NCBI GenBank assembly: GCA_013265495.1
Contig: MU057776.1
Coordinates: 62,001-126,000 of the forward strand
DNA length: 64,000 nt
DNA from: Vicugna vicugna
Lineage: Eukaryota
Reading direction: 5' to 3'
Part shown: positions 36,936-62,484 of the stretch, in pieces
Numbering within the stretch: position 1 is the first letter of the stretch
How the letters are laid out: each line of letters opens with the position of its first letter
The notes under the pieces: model-generated
Told to the model about the DNA's origin: nothing
The model's input: the letters and a program-made list of their open reading frames with translations, nothing else
Database searches by the model: none
Translations under genes and position numbers: made by a program

Positions 36936-37577
36936 TGATGCAGGAAAACGGATGTGGGGCGTGAGGAGGGCCAAGTCCCAGGTCTCAGCTGAGCCCCTGG
37001 TATGTGCCCCACCAAGTGTGGGTCCTTGGCTTCACACAGGAAAGGATTCGAGTGTGAGCCACCATTGAGTAAAGGTAGATTTATTTAGAGAGACACACAC
37101 TGCATAGAGTGTAAGGCAAGAGAAAGGGAAGGAAAGAGGTGTGGGAATTGGGTGCTCAGGTTAAAGTAAAAGTAGGTGCACACTCCGTAGACAGAGTGCT
37201 GGCATCTCCGAAGGGGAGAGAGAGCACTAGGTGCCACTAGGCGTGGTGGTGTCACTTTTTATGGGCTCAGTAGCTTCACACGCCCACAGGTGGGATCAAC
37301 CCAACTGCCCAGGGGAAAGGGCTGGGGTTCCCAGGGACTGGGCCACTGCCCATGCTTTGGCCTTTTGCGGTTGGTTAGCCTTGGGGCTGTCATGGCGCCT
37401 GCGGGCATGTTATTCGATCACGCTGTTACAATGAGTGTATAATGAAGCTCAAGGTCTACTAGAAGTTAAACCTCTTAATCCTCAAGGCCAAGGAGGAGGT
37501 GAATCCCCTACCATTTTGGTGTTAAATTGCTGTCATTCCTTGAGTGGCTGTGCCCTGCCCCCTTCCATCCTGTCTCA
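36936..37577 (-). mobile_element. ERV1-class solo LTR (family A), 642 bp, perfect 4-bp TSD
   Basis: On the minus strand TGAGACAGG...CTGCATCA; GTGG at 36932-36935 and 37578-37581; CATAAAAA at 37256-37263 and AATAAA near 37080. Confidence 0.92.
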
Positions 37578-37881
37578 GTGGCACCAAATATACTTACTAA
37601 TATCTTTCATAATAACTTTCTGTAGTTAATCTTCCAGTATTTTATTTGGAAATGACCTAGACATTCAATAAATTTTCATCATTTAACTTAAGTTAAGAAG
37701 ATTCTTAAGTTTCAAGTTACCAAAAATCTGGAGAAATTACTTTTAACTAGACATATCATAAAACAATTATTCTTAAAATGTTCACCTGAAGGCTTACTCC
37801 ATTTCTATCTCTTTAATTCACTTATTACCAATAATTATGTTTAGATTATCCATGAAAACTTCATGAGACACTAGACCAAGA

Positions 37882-38500
37882 TGATGTAGGAAAATGGATG
37901 TGGGGTGTAAGAAGGGCTGTGTCCCAGGCTTCGGTTGGGCCCCCGGGACGTGCCCCGCCAAGTGTGGGTCCTTGGCCTCGCGCAGGAAAGAATTCAAGAG
38001 GGAGCCACGGTTGAGTAAGGGTAGATTTATTCACAGAGATACCATGAAAGGCAAGGGACAGGCCAGGAGGTGTGGGGGTTGGGTGCTCAGATTACTAGTA
38101 GGTGCACACTCCACAGACAGGGTGCGGGCCGTCTCTGAAGAGGGGGGCGGCGGCCATAAGGCACCGTGCTGCTAGTTTTTATGGGCTTGGTGGCTAATGC
38201 TAATAAGTGGAAGGACCAGTGCAAGTAGCCTGAGGAAGGGGCTGGGATTCCCAGGAAGTTGGCCATTTCCCACTCTTGACCTTTTGTGGCTGACCTCCGG
38301 ACTGCCATGGCACCTGTGGGCATGTTATTCCCCATGTTAATATATTACAATGGGCGTATAATGACGCTCTAGATCTGCTAGAAGTTAAATCTCCCACCAT
38401 CCTGAGCCTCAAGGCCTGCTGGGGGTTGAACCTTTCCCCATTTTGGTGTTAATTGCTGTGGCATTCCCTGAATGGCTGTGCCCTATTCCCTCCTGTCTCA
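37882..38500 (-). mobile_element. ERV1-class solo LTR (family A), second copy
   Basis: Colinear with 36936-37577 with the same termini (tgatgtagg...tgtctca). No intact TSD. Confidence 0.88.
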
Positions 38501-39309
38501 GTCGGCCATCATCCCAAACTACTTTTCTTGCTGACAAATTTTGTAACAGAGATAACATAAACTTACTTGACTTTTAGTAAACTTGGGTACAATAACAGTA
38601 TTATATTTAATGTTGGTAACTCTAAAGACATGTCTGTATTAATTAAACCAAACTTAAACTAACTTTAAAACTGAATATTAATCTAATACTGGATATTTCC
38701 TGGATCTCATAAACCTGAAATTTATCTGGGTTAGTTTCTATCCTATTTCTGAGAATTAACATAAGCACTTAACTTTTTGTGAACAAAGTAAATAGAGCTA
38801 ATTTTACAATTACTTTTAGCAATACCATCTGGACATAGAAACATATTTGTAATGTACATACCTTCACATAGACTCATAGTTTTCATTTTAAAATTTAGTG
38901 ATGAATTAAGTATTAAATATAAAAAAATATAATTTATAAAAATATAAAATTAAAAAATAATAGTTGGAAAAAACTAAGTCTATTTGCTTGAGTTTCTAAA
39001 AAGGCCTCTTCCCTCTTTTTCCTTTAGTCTCAGGAACTGAAGATGGTCTAGACAAGAGTTGTCTGACCTGTCAGAGCACCTACATCCAAAGGCCCGGGGA
39101 GAGAAACGCAAGCTTCTTCTAGAAGGAATTTTGTTCCCTTAGGGTCAGAACTGTGAAAGATGTTCTGTCAAGCCAGCTTTCTCTAACTGCTTACACAACA
39201 AACAGTTTTGGAATGTCAAAAAAGCCCCACTGTGGCCATTTCAGGGTGAGGATTTTGTATTTCCCAATTAAGTAAGTACTTCACGTATAGTCCCATACGT
39301 ACATAAACC

Positions 39310-41756: not shown

Positions 41757-43680
41757 ATTGCATTTCTTTATACAATCAATGAAATATCAGAAAAGGAAAG
41801 TAAAGACACAATCCCTTATTTGAAAGTGCATCCAAAACAATAAAATACTTAGGAATAAATCTGACCAAGGAAGTAAAGACTTACACACAGAGAACTACAA
41901 AACATTGACTAAGAAAATTAAATATGACGTAAAGAAGTGGAAAGATATCCCATGTTCTTGGGTTGGAAGAATTAGTATTGTTTAAAATGGCAAAACAACC
42001 CAAAGCAATCTACAGATGTAATGTGATCCCTATCAAATTATTCAGGACATTTTTCACAGAACCAGAACAAATAATCCTAAAATTTATATGAAATCACTAA
42101 AGACCCAGAATTGTCAAAGTAATATTGAAGAGAAAGAACAAAGCTGGAGGAATAATCCTCCCAGACTTCAGACAATACTACAGAGCTACAGTAATCAAAA
42201 GAGTGTGGTATTGGCACAAAAACAGACACACAGATCAATGGAACAGATCAGAGAGCCCAGAGACAAACCCTCACGCCCACAGTCAACTAATCTTTGACAA
42301 AGAAGACAAGAAGATACAGTGCAGAAAAGACAGTCTCTTCAGCAAATGGCGTTGGGAAAGCTGGACAGCCACTTGTAAATCAATGAAGTGAGAACGCTCC
42401 CTCACGCCATACACAAAAATAAACTCAAAATGGCTTGAAGACTTAAACGTAAGACAAGACACTGTAAACCTCCCAGAAGAAAGCACAGCAAAACATTCTC
42501 TGACACAGATCTCAGCAGTGTTCTCCTCGGGCCATCTACCCAGGCAATAGAAATAAAAGCAAGAATAAACAGATAGGACCCAATTAAGCTTATAAGCTTT
42601 TGCACAGCAAAGGAAACTAAAAACAAAACGAAAAGACAGCCTACGGAATGGGAGAACGTATTTTCGTACGACGCAACTGACAAGGGCTCAATTTCCAGAA
42701 CATACAAACAGATCATACAACTTAATAACCAAAAAACAAACAAGCCAATCCAAAAATGGGCAGAAGACCTAAACAAGCAATTCCCCAGTGAAGACATACA
42801 AATGGCCAACAGGCTCATGAAAAAATGCTCAGTGTTGCTAATCATTAGAGTAATGCAAATCCAAACTACAATGCGGTACCACCTCACACCAGTCAGGATG
42901 CCCATCATTCCAAAGCCCGTGAATGATAAATGCTGGAGAGGCCGTGAGAAAAGGGAACCTGCTGCACTGTTGTGGGAATGCAGTTTGGTGCGGCTGTTAT
43001 GGAAAACAGTGTGGAGATTCCTCAACAGACTGAAAATAGACTTACCCTATGACCCAGCAATCCCACTCCTGGGCATATATCCAGAGGGAACCATAATTCA
43101 AAAAGACACGTGCACCCCAATATTCACAGCAGCACTATTTACCATAGCCAAGACATGGAAACAGCCTAAATGTCCATCGACAGATGACTGGATAAAGAAG
43201 ATGTGAATATCTTTATGCAATGGAATACTACTCAGCCATAAAAACGAATGAAAGAGTGCCATCTGCAGCAACAAGGATGGACCTGGAGATCGTCATTCTA
43301 AGAGAAGTAAGCCAGAAAGAGAAAGAAAAATACCATATGATATCACTTATATGTGGAATCTTTAAAAAGAAAAAAAGGCAAATGAACTTATTTGCAAAAC
43401 AGAAACAGACTCACAGACACAGAAAGCAAACTTGTGGTTATGGGGGGAGGGGGAGTTAGAGATTTGCAAAGACTAACTGATATATGTAGAATAGATTAAC
43501 AACAAGATCACCCTGTACAGCACAGGGAACCATATTCAATATCTTGTAGTAACTCATGGTGGAAAAGAATATGAAAATGAATGTACGTGTGTTCATGTGT
43601 GGCTGAAGCACTGTGCTGGACACCAGAAATTGACACAACATTGTAAACTGATTGTACTTCAATAGTAATAATAAAGAAAG
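41757..43680 (+). mobile_element. L1 3' ~1.9 kb (frameshifted ORF2 plus 3' UTR and A-rich tail)
   Basis: ORF2 peptides [59 protein letters not shown]. Confidence 0.95.
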
Positions 43681-44584: not shown

Positions 44585-45837
44585 GCGGAAAGAAGGGGGA
44601 GAGCCCATCCACCTGGAATTCTATTTCTAGTGACTTATTCCTTGGGGTAAAGGGGAAGTAGACTTCCTAAACAAAAACGGCATTCCTTTGTCAGCAGATG
44701 GACCGGTAAGAAATGCTACAAAAAGTTTTTCTGGCAAGACATAAACGTATGCAGGTTAGAAACCTTGATCCTCATTAGGAAAGAAAGTGAATCAGTGAAG
44801 GAGTAACGGCAGGAAAATAGAATATTCTATTTCTCATTGTTAACTGAATGAGAAATAAGAACCACTGTTTGGTGACAGTGATTGTGGTGATTGTGAGTTC
44901 GGTTATGACAGCTCCAGGAAGGGAGATGAACGAGGCAATGTTGTCAGGCCCTGGCGGGGGGCCTGGGGACACGCCAGGGTCCCTGCACCACTTGTGAAGC
45001 AGCACGGTGCTATCTGAAGGGGCACACAGTCGGTTAAAATGCGTTCAGGCGATTTTGGCAAGAATGGTAAAGTAAGCCTCCCCTCCTCTCTGAACCCTTT
45101 CTAGCGGAAAGAAGGGAGAGAGCCCATCCACCTGGAATTCTATTTCTAGTGACTTATTCCTTGAGGTAAAGGGGAAATAGACTTCCTAAACAAAAACAGG
45201 GCATTCCTTTGTCAGCAGATGGACCCGGTAAGAAATGCTACAAAAAGTTTTTTCTGGCAAGACATAAACTTATGCAGGTTAGAAACCTTGATCCTCATTA
45301 GGAAAGAAAGTGAATCAGTGAAGGAGTAACGGCAGGAAAATAGAATATTCTATTTCTCATTGTTAACTGAATGAGAAATAAGAACCACTGTTTGGTGACA
45401 GTGATTGTGGTGATTGTGAGTTCGGTTATGACAGCTCCAGGAAGGGAGATGAACGAGGCAATGTTGTCAGGCCCTGGCGGGGGGCCTGGGGACACGCCAG
45501 GGTCCCTGCACCACTTGTGAAGCAGCACGGTGCTATCTGAAGGGGCACANNNNNNNNNNNNNNCCTCTCTGAATCTGTCATAAGAGCAACAAGTACCCCG
45601 GCAAAACTTGTTAGAATAAAACTTTTCAGAACTCTGGAAATTAGCAAACTCCTCGCACTAATCTGGGTGTGATTTAATCAAGACAAGAAAATGAGGTAAA
45701 GTAAGCCTCCCCTCCTCTCTGAACCCTTTCTGTCATAAGAGCAACAAGTACCCCGGCAAAACTTGTTAGAATAAAACTTTTCAGAACTCTGGAAATTAGC
45801 AAACTCCTCGCACTAATCTGGGTGTGATTTAATCAAG
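44585..45837 (+). repeat. Near-identical tandem duplications around a 14-N gap (probable assembly artefact)
   Basis: 44585-45026 is repeated at 45104-45549; about 45575-45680 is repeated at about 45730-45837; a linker recurs at 45066 and 45695; Ns at 45550-45563. Confidence 0.9.
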
Positions 45838-47462
45838 AAAATGCCTGCATCTTTGTCAACACAGCAAGGCTGTGGTGTGTCTATGCATCTCCCACTTGCC
45901 CTCTGTTGACTTGAAACCATCAGTCTGGGGCCGCCGGGGCGGGGCGGGGCTCCAGGCTCCTCCTCTGTCGCCCTGCCCTGGGAGAAACCACACACAGAGA
46001 GCTCCTCTGATCTCTCCGCTGGGAGCCTGCAGAGCACAAACAACTTTTCCCTATCGACATTCGTTGAGAAACAGAGCAATGGTTAAACACTGTGGCTCTT
46101 GAGGCGGTAGAGAGTATTCGGGGCAAACAAGAAGCTAACCAGAAAGCTCACAGGGAGACGCTGGGGCTGAGATGTCGTAGGGGGCTTTGAAGACACAATT
46201 TTTATACGGACAAAGGTCTCGAATCGACATTTCTCCCAAGGACACATACAAGTGGCAAGTGGTCAACAAACACATGAAAAGACGTTAAACACCACCAGTC
46301 ACTAAGAAATGGAAATCAAACCCGCAATGAGATTCCACTTCACACCCAGGAGGATAGGACAGCTGTCACCCCAAACCCAGAAAATGACCAGTGTTGGCAA
46401 GGAGGCAGCGTACTGAGACAAGAGACAGCTGGACGGTCCTCCAGGACACGCCGAGGGAGAGGAGGCTGGCACGCAAGGCCACGCGTTGTACGCTTCCTTT
46501 TACACGGCTTATGCGGAATAGGAACCTCCACAGAAACAGAAAGCATATCAGTGGTTTTCGGGAGATGAGAGGGAAGGGCGGTGTTTACTGGGCACCGGAT
46601 GTTTTTCTGGGGTCACGAAACGTGTTGAAACTAGAGAAGAGTGGAAGTTGTACAACATTGTGTGTTCACCAAATGCCCCTGAACTGTACAGTTTCTTTTT
46701 TCATTCCTACATTTTTTTCTCTTTCCACCTCCTCTGATTAATCAAAATACTGTCTTCATCTCCCTTTTCTTGTTCCCTCATTCCCTCTGCTTCTTTTCAC
46801 ATTCATCCCTTTAAAAAGTATTTATTGATAAGTATGCTTCCAGTCAAATTCACCTGCAGCTGGCCTCCAGGCATGCTTTCTTACTGCATAGCCTTCACCC
46901 TCGAGCACCGCCCTGGCTCTGTGACCCCCACCTTCCCGTTCACCCATCATGTGTGCACACGACCACCCCAAGTGGCATCACCCACACCCTAACTCAATTG
47001 TGTGTCTCTTGACCAGCCCCCTGCACCAACCCCGACACCAAAAATCCTTCCCTGTTCTCCCAACCTCGCTCCTCTGGTCTCCTCAGGCAACTCTCCAAAG
47101 CCGGGACCCCTAGACAGCAGCGCCACGTCCCTGCCTCTCTCAGGGCTCGGTGTCACAGAAACCATTGTCCCAGTGCGGGGCTCACTCCCCCTGCCCTGCC
47201 TCCCCCACGGCTGAGGCTGAGGAAAGGGAGGAGGGGAGGAAGCTAACTGCACACTCTTTACCTCGATTTAGAAACAGCAAGGAAAAATAAGAGGTTAGAC
47301 TTCTCCCTGGGCTTCTAGAAGCCAGGCACACACGTAGGGCGGTGTCCACACTCAGGAGAGCCAGAGGGACCCTATACACAGCCCTCCTCCCCCGTGCCTT
47401 CACCCACCCTGACCCTACCCGGCCTCGGAGCCGACTTCTCTGCCTGAGGAATGCGGCAGCCA

Positions 47463-48941
47463 TGCTACTGACAAAGACTGGTTCCGGAAGTTTAAGAAAC
47501 ATTAGCTGGCCACAGATATCATCAGGAACGTACGTGCCACCGAGGTAGCAGAATGACTGGGGTTCATCCCACAGCAGCTCCAGTTCTGCTTAGCAAAAGT
47601 GGCCCCGCAAGCACTCGCGTTCCACGCCGGGCTCCACGCCAGCGAGCCAGGCTTCTTACCCATTGGAAGTCTGAGAAGAGGTTGAGATCGTTTCAGCCCC
47701 AAGACCTCTAATCATTCGCTTGACCGGACAAAACTGCCTTGTGTGCGGTGCTACTTTGGGGAAAGGACAGACAGTAGCCGTGAGAGAGCAGGAGACTAGC
47801 GGAAGGGCTTCCCCGACGCGAAGGCTGTTTGCCGACCCGTTCTGACTGAAAGTCCTTGCAGCTTGTTTTCTCTTTTCTCTGACAAACCCCCATCTCTGCT
47901 CGCTGCACTCTCCCCGCACTCCCTGTACGCTCTTCTCCCAGAACAGCCGCTCCTCTAGCCCAGCAGCGATGCTCCAGGAAGGTGCTCATGGCTGACAGCC
48001 TCGGAAGGATGAGCAGACCCTCTGGAGTTTCCCTGTGGTGCCCGGTGGCCTCATCAAGATGAGGAAGAGGGCAGCGCCCAGAAGACGCCCTGATGGCTGT
48101 TGCCTTTCTGTTCCAGCCGGGTTTTCTATAAAACCTCAGGACACCAGCCCCAGGATGGATTTGAGACAGGAAGGAAGGGGTCAGGGCAGGGCGTTCAAGG
48201 ACTGACGCAGCAGTTAGCACCAAAGCTATGGAAGGGTCCGCTCCCGGCAGACCTTGGGGCCCAGGGTGATGGAGATTCGACTCCTTACGGACCTGGAGCT
48301 TCATTATACACTCACTGCAGTGTATCAGCATGGTAAACGGCCCTCCCACGGGGGCCAGGGCAGTTTCGAAGCTGACTATAAAGGCTCAAAAAGTGGGTGA
48401 TGGCCCAATTCCTGGGAATCCCAGCCCCTCCCTCAGAGTGGTTGGATTAATCCTCCCACTTGTCAGCCTAAGAAGGTACCAGCCCCTAAAAGCTAGCAAC
48501 CCCTACATCTCATGGCCACTCTCCCTTCTGAGGGAGCCAGGCCACAGTCTGTCTGAAGAGTGTGCATCTACCGAGCACCCAACCCCCACACCTCGTGGCC
48601 TTTCTCTTGCTTCTGAAACAGCCTGCACTCCGAAGTCCGCATCCCCCTAAATAAATCTGCCTTCACTCAACTGTGGCTCCCTCTTGAATTCTTTCCTGCG
48701 TGAAGCCAAGGACCCACACTCAGCGGGGCACGTCCCAGGGGCTCAGCCGAGACCTGGGACACGGTGCCCCTCTTGCCCACATTCGTTTTTCCTGTGTCAG
48801 CTTCGCAGCCTCTGAGGCACGAGCCTGCTGTGACCCCCTTTGCAGGCAAAGCAGTAAAGCTGTTCTCTTCTAACTCTGCCCAGGCTCTGCCTCCGAGTCT
48901 CAACTTGGCCGTAGGGTACAGAGGCCAGTTTTCCAGCAACA
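47463..48941 (+). mobile_element. Older ERV LTR split by a nested family-A LTR
   Basis: TATA-like tataaaa at 48127 before the insert; U5-like cagtaaagctgttctc...gtacagaggccagttttccagcaaca after it. 5' limit uncertain. Confidence 0.5.
48162..48799 (+). mobile_element. ERV1-class solo LTR (family A), + orientation
   Basis: TGAGACAGG...CCTGTGTCA; AATAAA 48650-48655; flanks gatt/gctt (4-bp TSD, 1 mismatch); reverse-complement homologue of 36936-37577. Confidence 0.88.
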
Positions 48942-54495: not shown

Positions 54496-55676
54496 CCCAC
54501 CAGCAGCAAGCCCAGCCAGCGGCACCCAGTGGCACGCACTGCTATGGAAACGACAGGTTGGCCAAGAAGCAAGCTCCACTCGGGGGCTGGGGTTCTCAGC
54601 TTCCTTACGCGGCAGGCTCAGAGGGGCTATCGCTCTGGGGCTCTGAGCACCTCCAAGACGTGGGCGGGAGGTTTTCTTGGGTAGATTACAAGCTTGGGAT
54701 ATTCTGGCCAATAAGGAGCGAACAGCTCAGCAACATCACAAAAGGGGAGCGGAGAATCAGGGAACAAGGACTCAGCTAATAAGAACATAACAGGTACCCA
54801 CACTCTTCACCTTAGATTTACAAGTAGGCCCAGCCCAGCGTTTTCTTCTCAAGACCGTTGGACCTACCACCACCCTGAACCGTTCCCCCAATTGACTTTC
54901 CTTCAAAGCAGTGCCCCGGGCACCCAACTGCCTCCTCTTTCTCTGTATGTAACATTTTTTTCCTTTCTCTCATGAATTTGCGTAGTTTTGGCAATTGGTT
55001 GCTTATTCTGAGTAATAATCTGTTATTCCTCAATAAACCCATTTTGCAGGTAAAATAACAGGCAGTTTTTAAGTCTTGAGAGAGCTGAGTCCTGGCCTGA
55101 GCTGAGCTGACCCCGTCCATCCCTGAGAAGGGGGCATAGGGCCCACAGCCAAGGAGCTGTCCCACCAACACCCAGTTCCTGCGTGAAATGCCAGGGGTGG
55201 CGGGAAGGAGGGAGGCAGCGGAGGTGGGCCGCACAAGCACGCAGGCCCTGGGCCCCGAAGCTGCTGCCAAAGGGCTCCCACCACGGCTGCCTCCTCGGGT
55301 CAGCAGCTCCCAGTGTCCTGCTCGTGGGAGCCCTTGGGAGATCATGGGAGGCTCCCCCGGGGCAGGCAACACGGGCTTCTGGGTGCCCGCCTGCAGCCAG
55401 GCAGGCCCCCAAGCCCGCCTGGAGCTCGGACTCAGAACCGGGACGGCACAGTGCGCGTCAAGGGGAGGGTGTGCAGCTGCGGTGCGGGCTCCGGGGCGCT
55501 GCTCCCTCTGGGGGCTGGGGTGTGGGGGCTGTGAGGGGCTGGCAGGGCCCTGCGTGGGGGCAGGGAGGGCCTGCAGCAGGCTTGGGTCCCCAGACCCCCA
55601 GGCTGGGGAGGAGCCCCCAGGCCCTGACCACACCCCTATATAGGGGTGGGGGCGGCTGGGGCAGGAGTGACTTGAG

Positions 55677-56700
55677 TAGGAAGGGAAGCAGAATTCATCA
55701 CCCCAAAATACGCCTCCTTGTCCTATCGACCATTTGGAGCTGGGTACACCGCGGAGATGCTCTGAAGCTGAGTAAAGGTCGCACTTTGCAAGAGACATTT
55801 ACTGCACAGGGGGAACCTGTTTGTAAGGCTGTCTCCTCTTGTGCCAGGAAGGGGGACGACTCCTTTCTCGAAAGTCTTGTGGCTGGAGGAGGCAGGACTT
55901 GGGGCTGCATGAGGCCGGACCCTTGTTCGTGTGCTGTTCTGGGTCCCCCCGCAACGGGCCTCTCCCCCCAGCGCCATTGGTCTCTGGTGGAGGTGGCACT
56001 TCGGGTGGTGGCCCTGATCCAGGAAAACATGGGGCGAGAGGATGGCCGTGTCCCATGTCGGGTCTGAGCCCCTGGGACGCGCCCCGCCAAGTGAGGGTCC
56101 TTGGCGTCTCGCAGGTAAGAATTCCGGATCGAGCCACGACTGAGACGAAGTGGATTTACTCCTTAGACCGCGTGTGGGGCTGCTCCCGTGGGGAGGGATC
56201 CAGAGGCCGCGAGGCGCGGGGTTGCTAGCTTCTCTGGGCTCGCGAGCTGCTCCTGCTGACAAGTGGGAGGGTTGTTCCAACCACTCCGGGGAAGGGGCAG
56301 GGGTTCCCAGGAACGGGGCCGCTGCCCACTTTTTGACCTTTTATGGTCAGCCTCGGAACTGCCCCGGCCCCTGTGGGAGGGCCCTTCAGCAGGCTCCTAC
56401 TTTACAATGAGCCCACGCGAGGCTCAAGATCAACCGGCACCAAACCTCCCGAAATATTGGTGCTAATGGCTGTGTGGTTCCTTTAATGGCTGTGCCCTGC
56501 CTGCCTCCCTCCTGTCGCAGCTTCAGCCATTTCGGGGAGTTTCTCAGTTTTCCTGGGTGTCTCCCATGCACACAGGATGCAACGCACGTTATTCAACTGA
56601 TATTTACTTTTCCCCAGTTAACCTGTCTTTTCGAAACAGGGGATCTCAGCCAAGTCAGGCCATGGAGGGAGGAAGGAAAATGTTCGGCCACCTCCAGCCT
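55677..56700 (+). mobile_element. MER34-like LTR directly upstream of the IFITM3-like promoter, split by a family-A LTR
   Basis: 5' gcagaattcatcaccccaaaatacgcctcctt; 3' ttttccccagttaacctgtctttt...tctcagccaag...gaaggaaaa. Confidence 0.6.
56015..56519 (-). mobile_element. ERV1-class solo LTR (family A), GC-enriched copy
   Basis: tgatccaggaaaa...ccccgccaagtgagggtccttggc...ctgtgccctgcc...cctgtcgca; colinear with 36936-37577. Confidence 0.85.
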
Positions 56701-56837
56701 CTGGGACAGGAAGCGCCCTCTGAGCCCCCGGCCCCCCTCCCGCCCACCCCTGTGTGACCTGACACGCAGCGGTTCAGCCCGCCCCCAGTACCAGCCCATT
56801 TCCGTTTCCCAAAACTCCAGGCAAGAGAAATTTTAGA

Positions 56838-56849
56838 GAAATCGAAACT
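56838..56849 (+). promoter_or_regulatory. ISRE of the IFITM3-like gene
   Basis: GAAATCGAAACT fits GAAANNGAAACT, 70 nt upstream of the ATG. A second ISRE-like site on the minus strand lies at 56798-56810 (GGGAAACGGAAAT). Confidence 0.85.
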
Positions 56850-56919: not shown

Positions 56920-57838
56920 ATGAACCGCGTCGCCCAGGCCGCCTTCCCCGGTGCCCACGTGGGCATACCCCCGGCGTATGAGATGCTCAAGGAGGAGCAC
57001 GAGGTGGGGGTGCTGGGGGCTTCCCAGAGCCCGGCCCCCGTGACGACCACTGTGATCAACATCCGCAGTGAGACCTCCGTGCCCGACCACATCGTCTGGT
57101 CCCTGTTCAACACCCTCTTCCTGAACGTGTGCTGCCTGGGCTTCGTGGCATTCGCCTACTCTGTGAAGGTGGGAGGGTGCCTGGGGGAAGGAGCGTGAGC
57201 CCGGCGAGGCCCCTGCCCAGACGGCACGTGGGCTGTGGGAGGCCTTGTGCATATAGTTCTGTGTGTGCGTGCGTGTGTGTGCGTGTGGGCGAGCGCACGC
57301 CCAGGCGTGCAGGTCGTGATGAGGTTGCAGGGGTGCGTGGGGATGACCAGCGTCAGCCTTTTGCCCCGTGGTGGGGCGGGCGGCCAGTAGGAGGCCAGAG
57401 CAGAGGGACGGTGAGCCCTGGGGCCTCCTGGACAGGCTGAGAGTCTGTGAGGAGGGAGATCCAGGCCCCAGGAGGGGAGGGAGGGCCCGCTGGGCACGGT
57501 CGTGCTCAGGCTATGGGGAGACGGGCAGGGGTGGGTCCCCAATGGGTGAATGGACACCGGGGGACCAGCAGGGAGGACCTGAGTCTTGGCACCTGGCCTT
57601 CACCCGGCCCGGCCCCAGGTCCCCCTCACCATCTCTCCTCCCCCAGTCCAGGGACCGGAAGATGGTGGGCGACATCCTTGGGGCCCAGAGCTACGCCTCC
57701 ACCGCCAAGTGCCTGAACGTCTGCGCCCTGGTGCTGGGCATCCTTCTGACCATCGTGTTCATCATTATTTTTGCCACTGGCTCCCTGATGATTTTCCAGG
57801 CGATTTCACAGATTGTAAAGGAGTATGGAGGCTACTAG
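56920..57838 (+). CDS. IFITM3: IFITM3-like antiviral protein. Exons 56920-57168 and 57647-57838; 146 aa
   Basis: [29 protein letters not shown] with PPxY and Y20EML motifs; C71/C72/C105, F75/F78, G91xxxG95; [12 protein letters not shown] junction; Kozak accATG. Orthology among IFITM2/3 paralogues cannot be resolved here. Confidence 0.92.
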
Positions 57839-57894
57839 TAGCTGCCCGCGGCCACCCCTTCACAGCAGTTTATACACACCCCCGTCTACAGCTG

Positions 57895-57900
57895 AATAAA
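57895..57900 (+). terminator. IFITM3-like polyadenylation signal
   Basis: AATAAA 56 nt after the stop, GU-rich downstream. Confidence 0.85.
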
Positions 57901-58839
57901 AGCCGGCGTTCCTGTGTGAGGCTGCTGTGTTCTCACCTGGGGAGGGCGCCCTGCTGAGAGCTCCCGCCTGCCCCTGAGACAGCCCAGCCCCCCTCTCCCT
58001 CCTGCTCTGCTGCCCAGGGGCCTGAGCCCCGGCCCCAGACAGGTCCTCTGGGGGCGGGCTGTGCTCGGTCCAACTCCCTTGCCTGTCGAGAAAAGAAAAA
58101 CGAGAGAGAGAGAGAGAAAGGCCGCAGAAGCCTGCCAAAGAGAGAAAAGAGAGAAAAGGCTCTTTTGGGGAGCTTTAGGATCTGCAACTGGGAGGCACAC
58201 ATTCGAGTAGCAAGTCAAATGTGCTCCGAGGGAAGTCAACACGGTGGGGGTTACAAAGACAAAGACATTCCTGAGAAGTTACAGGGCTGTTTCAGAGCTG
58301 GGACTGGGGCCAGCAGGCTTTGAGGCTCACGTCGCAGCTGACTGGTTGCTAACGTGAGGTTTGCAGGGAGTGAAGAAAGTGAGTCCCCGGTGGTCCCAGG
58401 GTGTGAGGGTGGGTGTCAGCTCCACGTCCCGTGGGCTCTGGGGCTGTCTGAGACCCTACCATGGGGCTGCATTTGGTGGTCCGTAGCCCTCAACCCGGGG
58501 TCCCCATCAGTGGGAGGGCTGCAGGAGCCCTTGGTCCACCTGTGGAGGGACGGCCCCGGCGGTCCCTGCTTTTCAGGCGGAGGAGACCCCCCTGCCCTGG
58601 AAATCAGCCCCCCGTCCGGTTTTGCCGTGGCCTCCAGACTTGTGGGCACAGGAGTGGCCCCGGGGCAGACCCTGCCCACAACCAGCTGGGCAGGTGCGGT
58701 GTGAGCTGGGGTGGCCATCGCCTGCCCCTTCCTCCCCGCCACCTGACCCCAGCTGTGGGCCCTCCTGTGAGTGGAAAATATCACCTGCCGTGTCCGTGAG
58801 CAAAGGATGTTGCAGCCACCAAGTCCTCAGCCACGGCAG

Positions 58840-59184
58840 CCACCCGGGACCCTGAGCCCTGAGGGTCTCAGGCGGGGAGAGCCCAGGACACTGGCCCTAG
58901 GAGCTCAGCTGCACCTCAAAGGAAGGATTCCAAGGAGCCCAGGCTCTGGCGTCTTCCCAGACACAGAGACACCTGAAATTCCTTACCCTGAGATAGCTGG
59001 TCTTATTAACAGTACTCTTTTGATGTGCCGACCGCCTGGGGTCTTACCAAGCTCCTGTGTATCCTGGCTCCTCCCCGCTCTCGGGGCAGCCCTTCAGAGC
59101 CATCTGCCTCCCGGCTTGAAGTCCTCAGAGAGCCCACCAGATAAAACATAATTTTAACTCTCAGGCCGTGCAGTTCTTCAGTCC
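58840..59184 (+). mobile_element. MER41-like LTR (family B) between the two IFITM genes
   Basis: Colinear with 43700-44062 (ccctgagggtctcaggcgg...ataaaacataattttaactctcagg...ttcagtc). Confidence 0.72.
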
Positions 59185-59772
59185 GTGAGCCCCAGCCCTC
59201 ACCCGCACCCCTTTTCTGTTCCCGGCAGCAGAACCTGAGTCCAGGAAATGGGGTGTTGGCGTCCCAGGGCGGGCCATGGAGAAGCCCCCTCCCCCGGGCG
59301 ATCTGACTCCTGTCAGCAGGCGTGGGGACAGAGCCCGGGAAGGTTGGCCCTGGAGGAGGGACGGCAAGCCGACCTGGCGCTCTGGGTTGGGAAGGACCGA
59401 CCCCAAGGGGGGAAGGGGCCAACAGCCAGCAAAGCATTGGAGTCTGGAGCAGGCGCTGCCCAGCGGCACGGACCCTGCTGGGGTGGGCTGGGCAGATGGA
59501 ATCTTCCGGACCAGCAGTGCCTGGCAAGGGAGCCGGCGGTGCGCGGCCAGAAGCAGCCCTCTGTCCCCCCAGGAGCACAGGTGTCCTGTTCCGCCCTCGT
59601 GCCCCCTCAGCAGGAGTCGTGAGGTGCGGCTTCCTCCAGGCAAAGCAGAAGAGCATTCTCTCCCCAGGGCTATTCGGAAAGTGTCCAGAAATGCCTCTGA
59701 CGCTGCTGCCGCCCACCTGTGCGCCCGGTCCTGGCTCTGTGTCCTCCTGGCCCACCATCCCAACCCCTCCAT

Positions 59773-59908
59773 GCCCTCCTCTCCCCCTCCGCGCCCTCCT
59801 CCGCCGCCTCCTTGCCCTCCTCTCCCCCTCCGCGCCCTCCTCCGCCGCCTCCTTGCCCTCCTCTCCCCCTCCGCGCCCTCCTCCCCCACCTCCGCGCCCT
59901 CCTCCTCC
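59773..59908. repeat. C-rich 41-bp minisatellite, about 3 copies
   Basis: Unit gccctcctctccccctccgcgccctcctccgccgcctcctt starts at 59773, 59814 and 59855. Confidence 0.92.
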
Positions 59909-61117
59909 CACTTCACTGTTCTCCCAGCTCTGGGCCCTCCAACGTTCAGTGCTCCCAGCTCGCCCATTTCTCTCAGCCCCGCATAGATCGTCCACCTCAC
60001 CAGGCAGCGCTCACCTGCAGGTGACACAGGACACTGTAACTGCCCACGTCAGAACAGAGCTGGTGGTGTGGCTCCAAGGGTTAGAGCTGCTCAGGACCCA
60101 GCGGTCAGCACCCAGGACCTTGGAACGGACCTACAGTTCCCCTGCGCGAGGCCTGGGACCTCACCTGCTTATTTTGGAAAGCTCCAGATCCCTAGTTCTT
60201 TGCTAGCTGCCAAGAGAGGGGGTCTTCCCCTGGCAGGAGCCTAATCCTGAGTCAGTGGAGCGCAGGTGGGGTTGGGCTCAATGCCCATCGCCCTTCTGGA
60301 CGGCTGCCCAGCAGGGGAATGTGGGACCCGCCTAGTCTGCCCTGTTGGGGCTGGGGTCAGGGTCATGCGTTCTGGCCCCCAGCCCCACCTTGGAGAAAGT
60401 CCTTTTGGACCTAGAGGGGCAGGTCTGCCAGCCTCCCCTCCTCCAGGACCCACCTTCCCTGGGCTGAGCCTCCCGTGATGAAGTGGGACCCGAGAGAGAG
60501 TGGGCAGCCTCTTCTGAGACACCGTCCACCAGTGAGGACCCCAAGCAGCGTGGCCTCGGAGTTAGGCCACTGCGGGGGGTGGGCGCCCTTCCCTCCTGGG
60601 TGCCTGGACTCAAGGGAACCCAGCGTGAAGAGCTGAGACTTCAGCGAGAGCCAACAGGACTTGGCCTCAGCTGACTGAGCGTGCCCAGGGGCAGGTGGAG
60701 AAGGGGTCACCTTCTCGACACAAGGCGAGGCTGCCTGGGCTCCTCCTGCCTCCCCAGGGTGACGCCCAGCACACTCGGGGTAGCGTGCAGGGCACGGTGG
60801 TCTGTGGCAGGGTGCCCCTTCCCCACCCACCAACTCCCTCTGGGGCCTCAGAGATGGGAGCACAGGTCTGGGGCCTTTCTCCCGCATTGGGCTGAGGACG
60901 GTCCCCACCTCTCTGGGTGCAGCCCAGGCTCTGGCAAAGGTTCACACCCAACACCCCAGGGTCCCCAGTTTCTGGGAGACCCTTCCCGGGACACCGAGCA
61001 GTCGCTCAGCCAGCAGGGCCAGGCGGGTTTGGTGGGAGGAAGTGGTCTTTCCTCTGGGGGTTTCTGTTCATCCAGGTGAATCACCGGCTCTGCTATCTGC
61101 TTCTGCAGTCAGGCCAC

Positions 61118-61326
61118 TGGGGACTCCCAGCCGTGCCCCCTCCCCAGGGACTTCACTGCACCCTCACATCTGGGGACTCCCAGCCGTGCCCCCTCCCCAG
61201 GGACTTCACTGCACCCTCACATCTGGGGACTCCCAGCCGTGCCCCCTCCCCAGGGACTTCACTGCACCCTCACATCTGGGGACTCCCAGCTGTGCCCCCT
61301 TCCCAGGGACTTCACTGCACCCTCAC
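61118..61326. repeat. 53-bp minisatellite, about 4 copies
   Basis: Unit tggggactcccagccgtgccccctccccagggacttcactgcaccctcacatc starts at 61118, 61171, 61224 and 61277. Confidence 0.96.
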
Positions 61327-61338
61327 GTACAAGTGCAC

Positions 61339-61344
61339 TTTATT
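61339..61344 (-). terminator. IFITM1-like polyadenylation signal
   Basis: tttatt on + is AATAAA on -; preceded by the same cagcagtttatacacac 3' UTR motif as the IFITM3-like gene. Confidence 0.85.
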
Positions 61345-61474
61345 CGATTCAGTTGTCATCAGGTGTGTGTATAAACTGCTGTGTAAAGGGGTGTGGGGAG
61401 AGCAGGCTCCCAGCCCCAGGGGCAGGGACAGCAGTGGATGGTGGAAGACCTGGGCTGCCTTCCATTGGTAGCTC

Positions 61475-62326
61475 TTAGTAGCCTCTATTCTTCTTCATAA
61501 ACTCTGACGTGATATGGTTGGCCATAGGGTATAAAAATACCAGAAGAACGATGACTCCAATGGTCCCGAGGATGCCCAGCACCAGGGCACAGACGTTCAG
61601 GCACTTGGCAGTGGCGGCATGGCTCTGGGCCCCAAGGATGTCGCCCACCATCTTCCGGTCCCTGGACTGGGGGAGAGATGGTGAGGGGGACCTGGGGCCG
61701 GGCCGGGTGAAGGCCAGGTGCCAAGACTCAGGTCCTCCCTGCTGTCCCCCGGTGTCCTTTCACCCACTGGGGACCCACCCCTGCCCGTCCCCCCACAGCC
61801 TGAGCACGACCGTGCCCAGCGGGCCCTCCCTCCCCTCCTGGGGCCTGGATCTCCCTCCTCACAGACTCTCAGCCTGTCCAGGAGGCCCCAGGGCTCACCG
61901 TCCCTCTGCTCTGGCCTCCTACTGGCCGCCCGCCCCACCACGGGGCAAAAGGCTGACGCTGGTCATCCCCACGCACCCCTGCAACCTCATCACGACCTGC
62001 ACGCCTGGGCGTGCGCTCGCCCACACGCACACACACGCACGCACACACAGAACTATATGCACAAGGCCTCCCACAGCCCACGTGCCGTCTGGGCAGGGGC
62101 CTCGCCGGGCTCACGCTCCTTCCCCCAGGCACCCTCCCACCTTCACAGAGTAGGCGAATGCCACGAAGCCCAGGCAGCACACGTTCAGGAAGAGGGTGTT
62201 GAACAGGGACCAGACGATGTGGTCGGGCACGGAGGTCTCCGTGGGGATCTGGATCATGGTGGACATCACGGGGGCTGGGTTCTGGGGAACCCCCAGCACC
62301 CCGACCTCATGCTCCTCCTTGTACAT
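61475..62326 (-). CDS. IFITM1: IFITM1-like protein. Exons 62326-62141 and 61666-61475; 125 aa
   Basis: Short N-terminus [12 protein letters not shown] lacking YEML; CD225 domain; exon 2 [63 protein letters not shown]. Length and RGY end resemble IFITM1. Confidence 0.92.
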
Positions 62327-62453: not shown

Positions 62454-62484
62454 GGTTTCTATTTCTCGGTAGTTTCTATTTCCT
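62454..62484 (-). promoter_or_regulatory. Tandem ISREs of the IFITM1-like gene
   Basis: Minus strand AGGAAATAGAAACT (62484-62471) and GAGAAATAGAAACC (62467-62454). Confidence 0.9.

Follow-up and report, generated by a model that had tools for sequence, protein, structure and literature searches.

Probable recent gene conversion between inverted IFITM3-like and IFITM1-like genes of a South American camelid

Organization of the inverted IFITM pair

The DNA considered here, hereafter the window, is a stretch of 64 000 nucleotides from Vicugna vicugna (GenBank assembly GCA_013265495.1, contig MU057776.1, contig C808 in our numbering, positions 62001-126000). It carries two IFITM genes, designated A and B, that lie tail-to-tail in inverted orientation and whose diverged ends enclose a tract of perfect identity that was probably copied recently from gene A into gene B. 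Both genes are intact and consist of two exons, the structure described for IFITM genes (PMC4631062), with one intron at the conserved junction and the reading frame preserved. A profile search placed the CD225 domain (PF04505) above its curated cut-off in all four exons, matching CD225 positions 3-30 in exon 1 of gene A, and residues C71, C72 and C105 are found in both translations.

Gene A, on the forward strand, encodes an IFITM3-like protein of 146 residues. Its coding exon 1 (56920..57168, ATG at 56920) supplies a long N-terminus with PPAY and YEML motifs (residues 17-23), and is followed by an intron in phase 0 with GT..AG borders (57169..57646) and by coding exon 2 (57647..57838, stop included), with an AATAAA signal at 57895. 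Gene B, on the reverse strand, encodes an IFITM1-like protein of 125 residues from coding exon 1 (62141..62326, ATG at 62326), an intron (61667..62140) and coding exon 2 (61475..61666, stop at 61475); the introns measure 478 and 474 nt, as an earlier note on this DNA had reported. An N-terminal YxxPhi motif at residues 20-23 marks IFITM3-like proteins and is lacking from IFITM1-like ones (PMC11801718). In A the YEML motif occupies exactly residues 20-23, and B begins downstream of it, its short N-terminus carrying no endocytic motif. The core of B has T65, L68, V70 and C71, and its second exon is a mosaic, starting as in A, most closely resembling a further paralogue, D, in its middle, and ending its protein tail as does another, C.

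Protein A is identical to the IFITM3-like protein XP_072826800.1 (P0121) of the alpaca, Vicugna pacos, and lies three residues from the camel protein; in a tree built without human rows, its tail clusters with artiodactyl IFITM3-like tails (96/99). Protein B equals the alpaca IFITM1-like protein XP_072826802.1 (P0149) except at residue 93 (A numbering), where it has Ile for Val; given that residue, the RefSeq alpaca B represents a haplotype other than the one in the window. These matches place the DNA in a South American camelid. Upstream, the window encodes PYRIN and NACHT domains at 14.7-17.4 kb, a GH65 fragment that falls below the cut-off at 25.2-25.9 kb and a CD225 gene at about 31.7-32.8 kb, a neighbourhood that fits NLRP6-PGGHG-IFITM5, with gene names taken from domains and order. 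By the same domains and order, A and B occupy the canonical cluster position beside IFITM5 and ATHL1/PGGHG. Within the immunity-related IFITM cluster, they are paralogues of long standing. Two interferon-stimulated response element (ISRE)-like motifs upstream of A (56798..56848) and two upstream of B (62455..62484, reverse strand) are candidates by consensus match only.

An identical tract within diverged genes

The earlier note had claimed that positions 57070-57512 are the reverse complement of 62239-61797, and direct comparison within this one assembly bears this out at all 443 bases, with mismatches bounding the run on both sides so that it cannot be extended. The arm in gene A (57070..57512, forward strand), comprising 99 nt of exon and 344 nt of intron, is the putative donor side, and that in gene B (61797..62239, reverse strand) the putative acceptor side. 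Divergence between the two genes rises and falls in steps around this run. It amounts to 135 of 261 aligned bases in the proximal promoter and 5' untranslated region (UTR) and to 17/87 in the 5' part of exon 1, drops to nothing in the exon 1 core (0/99) and the 5' part of the intron (0/344), and resumes with 4 substitutions in 130 bases plus two indels in the 3' part of the intron. The two genes thus have distinct termini and promoters, as the earlier note had stated; its further statement that high identity continues into exon 2 applies to the first 45 bases, which show no difference, but not to the next 78, of which 14 differ, nor to the tail, where 31 of 69 differ.

When the 29 A/B differences were shuffled over the 761 alignable columns in 100 000 trials, no shuffle of the whole block produced a run of 443, the longest being 305; with shuffling confined to the intron and its six differences, a run of 344 appeared in 281 of 100 000. 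A Sawyer-type run of 83 shared states among the 192 polymorphic columns of A, B, D and a gene F described below was reached in none of 20 000 shuffles. The run of identity is thus longer than chance allows between two otherwise diverged paralogues, as is expected of an interlocus conversion tract. Beyond it, a near-identical extension (57513..57691, forward strand) with 4 substitutions and 2 indels relative to B is near-identical to paralogue D as well and would constitute an older or separate layer of conversion. The spacer between the identical arms (57513..61796) measures 4284 bp, in agreement with the separation of about 4.3 kb given earlier, and contains the second exon and the 3' end of each gene together with two tandem repeats, one of a 41-mer (59766-59909) and one of a 53-mer (61117-61326). 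A run search gave 24 rows with half or more of the words, the 14 listed coming from three organisms, by which the region is present in many animals; identical and near-identical arms look the same to such a search.

That the identity arose with no exchange at all, through recent duplication or purifying selection, is scarcely credible. All mammals conserve the core of CD225, yet purifying selection is rejected by the 344 identical intron bases and by the synonymous sites, all of which lie beyond the hold of selection on the protein. Recent duplication is likewise rejected, as A and B are separate genes in camels and their promoters have diverged to the extent given above.

Reliability of the assembly

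A more serious concern is that the two arms were merely similar and were collapsed or polished to a single consensus during assembly. The caveat in the earlier note about such an artefact has proved real for the intron, as the assembly looks mis-joined just beyond the window. The contig contains N gaps with duplicated flanks: within 44585-45841 of the window, direct duplications (98%; 44585-45026 against 45104-45549) lie on both sides of a 14-base gap (45550-45563), and they are likely a gap artefact. Some 32 kb beyond the A/B pair, outside the window, the entire module recurs on the same contig, extending from one core to the other. This second A-tail/spacer/B-tail module (contig C808 151122-156371; L024:5122-5977 on the forward strand, and L024:9520 to L025:371 on the reverse) contributes two genes, E and F. 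It differs from the first by 11 substitutions in 5075 aligned bases, with 4 in the 3541 bases of the spacer (0.1-0.2%), a divergence that resembles the level between two alleles, and each of its tandem repeats is one unit shorter. The module begins at a 760-base N gap and has C-type starts on both arms, E joining a C start to an A tail and F a C start to a B tail, with 5' regions that are inverted copies of one another (99.75%).

Neither a protein search (13 matches) nor a DNA search with exon 2 and the 3' UTR of B (8 matches) recovered from this assembly the C-type second exon that RefSeq alpaca and camels possess, and no database protein matching E or F occurred among the listed camelid-cluster members or the best 120 of 1223 matches. 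The second module is therefore probably a mis-join made through the identical core with a second haplotype, and it may instead be a real recombinant haplotype. Speaking against a mis-join, the sequence upstream of F has a counterpart at roughly the mirror position, in the 267 bases that precede the gap (91.8% identity), which makes a real second C-type start plausible. On either reading, the assembly is unreliable at this place.

These defects do not readily account for the tract. The RefSeq alpaca B, although it represents a different haplotype, shares the A-type exon-1 core; E and F of the second module retain variants specific to one arm within the tract, at the positions corresponding to 57113 and 57206; and six differences follow directly after the tract. 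The resolved part of the arms shows 4 substitutions in 175 bases and 2 indels, as against 17/87 upstream of the tract, so homogenization stands even if the zero is inflated. With the A-type coding core of the RefSeq B, the arm-specific variants and an adjoining resolved part that is about 97% identical, the damage to the argument appears limited, and homogenization by the assembly is an unlikely source of the whole pattern. The identical core invites chimeric assemblies and defeats short-read mapping.

Probable direction and timing of the exchange

Comparison with camels suggests a direction for the exchange. The camel orthologue of B, assigned by N-terminal residues 22-50, of which 1 of 29 differs from alpaca B, has a core with S65, M68, W70 and F71, whereas the window's B and the RefSeq alpaca B share the T65, L68, V70 and C71 of gene A, residues that are also found in alpaca A and camel A. 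Over the exon-1 core (residues 51-83), alpaca A and alpaca B do not differ at any of 33 residues and neither do alpaca A and camel A, while camel A and camel B differ at four, as do alpaca B and camel B. The pattern at the protein level is thus non-reciprocal in this core: between camel and alpaca, A is unchanged and B has changed. The camel-type B is on record for all three Camelus species (P0150, P0182), and W70 occurs in five of six outgroup IFITM1-like rows.

A processed copy of gene A elsewhere in the assembly (L028; C9280, ~5174900-5175510, minus strand) carries a poly(A) tract, is 92% identical to A and is frameshifted; it is probably the same as the low-quality V. pacos model P0227. 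In the 5' part of exon 1, 7 of 87 bases separate it from A, compared with 17 for B, which makes the retrocopy younger than the split between A and B. In the exon 1 core, the order is reversed, with the retrocopy at 4/99 from A and B at 0/99, which argues that the core of B was overwritten after the retrocopy arose. The retrocopy already has L68, V70 and C71, so the state of A is old. The camel comparison and the retrocopy together support the central claim of the earlier note, conversion between genes that keep distinct termini.

Trees of 22 artiodactyl proteins, from which the long-branched D row was excluded and in which there were no human rows, agree with this account to differing degrees. 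The termini unite the three B rows in a clade (100/100), and for them the approximately unbiased (AU) test rejects a tree in which alpaca B falls with A and C (p-AU 5e-5). In the core tree, alpaca B joins A and C (96/93), in conflict with the tree of the flanks. The literature having yielded no absolute mutation rate for camelids, an age bound was calculated with rates taken to be 1.1-2.2e-9 per site per year; zero differences then put the 95% upper limit on the age at about 1.5-4 Myr, which falls well after the Camelini-Lamini split at about 16.3 Ma (PMC12337305). By parsimony on the proteins, the direction would be from A to B and the event would fall on the Lamini branch.

Several observations weigh against this account. 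The reverse tree test is weak, since for the 66 columns of the core a tree keeping all B rows together has a p-AU of 0.058, short of the 0.05 level. The cross-species argument is made with proteins only and contains no camel or outgroup DNA, and the intron identity comes from one gapped assembly with a probable mis-join of the same module 32 kb away. Camel B, moreover, matches paralogue D at M68, W70 and F71 and C at S65, so that it could itself be the converted gene, and a superseded dromedary model (P0171) joins a B start to an A core and tail, so that South American camelids may not be alone in having an A-type core in B. The last two points favour a reverse polarity, in which the ancestral camelid B already had an A-type core that recurrent conversion maintained in agreement with A, and camel B was later converted from D- and C-like donors; the tract would still be a product of conversion, but South American camelids would have gained no cysteine. 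Such a history is improbable. It requires two donors, and M68 and W70 are common in pig, hippo and ruminant IFITMs, which makes their retention in camel B the simpler explanation. A recent A-to-B conversion is therefore the most likely explanation, and one in which we place considerable confidence; that conversion took place, whatever its polarity and with or without an accompanying inversion, we regard as very probable.

Possible inversion and exon-swapped genes

The inverted arrangement raises the question of whether the arms recombine by crossing over. In humans, a polymorphic inversion of 7.7 kb between IFITM2 and IFITM3, HsInv0124, reaches a frequency of 0.39 in a CEU sample (PMC6748972, PMC3961182), and high-identity inverted repeats likewise flank a short segment here, in the form of 443 bp arms 4284 bp apart. 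Crossovers between these arms could toggle the spacer of about 4.3 kb and homogenize the arms as a by-product, yielding exon-swapped genes, and two database chimeras might be read as such products: the dromedary model P0171 (XP_031303925.1), with its B start and A core and tail, and a Bactrian isoform (P0151, XP_045379002.1) that joins exon 1 of B to exon 2 of C. The geometry on which the earlier note had based its suggestion of inversion and exon swapping is thus correct, but the predicted products are largely missing. The start-to-tail links of A and B in the window agree with those in RefSeq alpaca and camels; no protein with an A start and a B tail appeared among 120 listed of 533 matches, nor among 120 listed of 1223. 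Of the two reciprocal junction products, that with a B start and an A tail is on record only in a dromedary model since superseded by a non-chimeric version 2 of the same accession. The human repeats, furthermore, are kilobases long in the sources cited. Inversion as the cause of the homogenized arms is accordingly very improbable.

A broader proposal would treat the cluster as a set of cassettes, in which the core is kept identical by conversion while three starts, each a promoter with its N-terminus, recombine with three tails, and living animals differ in the joins they carry. Were this so, the second module and the camel chimeras in the databases would be real haplotypes, and differences in IFITM localization and palmitoylation would be segregating; we consider it rather unlikely. 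A further inverted repeat of 1.9 kb, 95% identical, lies on either side of the A/B pair (window 41758-43634 and L022:2034-3938) and is a possible substrate for rearrangement.

Proposed mechanism and possible effect on palmitoylation

For the preferred account, a recent conversion of B by A, the following course can be envisaged. After South American camelids had split from camels, a break in one gene would have been repaired from its neighbour 4.3 kb away by way of the long shared core, and this non-allelic conversion would have copied the exon-1 core of A and most of its intron into B, recently enough for no difference to have accumulated since. The tracts would stop wherever the termini have diverged too far for pairing. 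This would keep the localization-setting N-termini, the promoters and the tails distinct, with or without additional protection by selection. A crossover between the arms, by comparison, would invert the spacer and swap the second exons.

The outcome for B would be a change at four residues, S65T, M68L, W70V and F71C, in and beside the amphipathic helix; the converted positions fall at the end of that helix (59-68) and at 70-71. B would thereby have gained a C71-C72 palmitoylation pair that camel B does not have. Codon 70 and C71 are also among the sites studied in bat IFITM3, in which either W70 or C71A lowered both palmitoylation and restriction (Benfield et al., PMC6907390). For human IFITM3, the same source gives no difference in restriction among six codon-70 residues, W and V included, and reports that C71A does not matter (PMC6907390). 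The effect thus depends on background, and a functional effect in camelids is plausible by analogy with the bat work. Such an effect could be tested by comparing gene B in its camel and alpaca forms. If the direction is as proposed, the locus offers a polarized case from nature in which conversion carried residues whose functional importance is known, at codon 70 and C71, out of an IFITM of the endosomal type and into one of the surface type.

Exchange across the cluster and in other mammals

The picture of two exchanging genes drawn by the earlier note has turned out to be too small, as at least four gene types exchange sequence within the cluster. RefSeq alpaca has all four (A, B, C and D) on one chromosome. 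In the segment of exon 2 at 57692-57769 (A coordinates), alpaca B lies 4/78 from D and 14/78 from A (run test, p 0.0003), and its last ten residues are those of C, from which those of camel B differ; the 3' part of the intron is near-identical among A, B and D. These tracts in B resembling D and C suggest that the A-to-B event is one episode in a cluster-wide exchange. Paralogue D itself (L025:4892-5893, contig C808 160892-161893, reverse strand) encodes 114 residues with a short tail, has a 657 nt intron with insertions and carries M68, W70 and F71 in its core. No camel orthologue of D was among the protein-search matches listed (120 of 1223 in one search), and D is accordingly left unpolarized. 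The D of this assembly has Phe for Ser at residue 94 relative to RefSeq alpaca D. At residue 99 (codon at 61630-61632 in B), B and D have His, in place of the Tyr99 that is conserved in A, C and the outgroups and is present in camel B. At codon 93, A, B and E have ATC; F, D and the retrocopy have GTC, and the RefSeq B has Val. This would amount to a polymorphism shared between paralogues if E and F are allelic copies.

Upstream of A, a segment of about 590 bp (55080..55666, forward strand) is 98.5-99.3% identical to sequence upstream of two genes that lie outside the window, the C-type gene and D, and is absent from B. The proximal promoters of A, the C-type gene and D have diverged despite this shared segment, which may represent a second concerted tract and perhaps a shared regulatory element. 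A similar combination of uniform cores and diverged tails is seen in pig, cow, hippo, musk deer, goat and buffalo, whose IFITM3-like and IFITM1-like proteins differ at 0-3 of 33 exon-1 core residues and at 20-24 of 29-30 tail residues; the pattern is therefore general in artiodactyls.

The conversion process itself is already established for the IFITM family, and conversion, chimeras and repeat-mediated inversion at IFITM clusters have all been published for other mammals. Dog, cow and horse are among the species with lineage-specific duplicates in which GENECONV detected conversion between immunity-related IFITMs (Zhang et al. 2012, PMC3499546); alpaca and camel are absent from the main text of that paper and an intron tract is unmapped in the portion covered, and its Table S2 may list tracts in other species. 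Primate paralogues are closer within than between species, and chimeras with an IFITM3 start and an IFITM1 tail occur in two monkeys (PMC10415907). The camelid tract differs from these in being internal, with both termini retained, and in having its donor and acceptor polarized by a sister tribe and a retrocopy. Human IFITM2 and IFITM3 form a hotspot of interlocus conversion (PMC4467073), and the inverted human paralogues exchange variants, about 10% of their single-nucleotide polymorphisms being attributed to conversion (PMC4467073, PMC6748972, PMC3961182). The human partners, as described in these sources, are two genes with long N-termini, with kilobase repeats around IFITM1, whereas the camelid partners are an IFITM3-like and an IFITM1-like gene that share 443 bp of identity and for which, unlike HsInv0124, no inversion is demonstrated. 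A literature search returned no title or abstract on camelid IFITM evolution, within a coverage that left out most subscription journals. What is new here is thus the camelid case, polarized and with a testable effect on a palmitoylation motif. It also indicates that camelid IFITM gene models are unreliable and that orthology or selection analyses based on the core would mislead.

The remaining features lie in the flanks of the pair. A direct repeat of 651 bp (99.7%) occurs at contig positions 145546-146196 and 158395-159045 (L023:9546 to L024:196; L025:2395-3045). Between the shared upstream segment and the proximal promoter, A contains 1037 bp (window 55667-56703) that are absent from the C-type gene. 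This interval includes a dispersed repeat (~56011-56520) with many genome copies at 70-76%, which is like a long terminal repeat in length and pattern, and three more copies of the same family, 68-80% alike, lie between IFITM5 and A (window 36936-38502 and 48162-48803).

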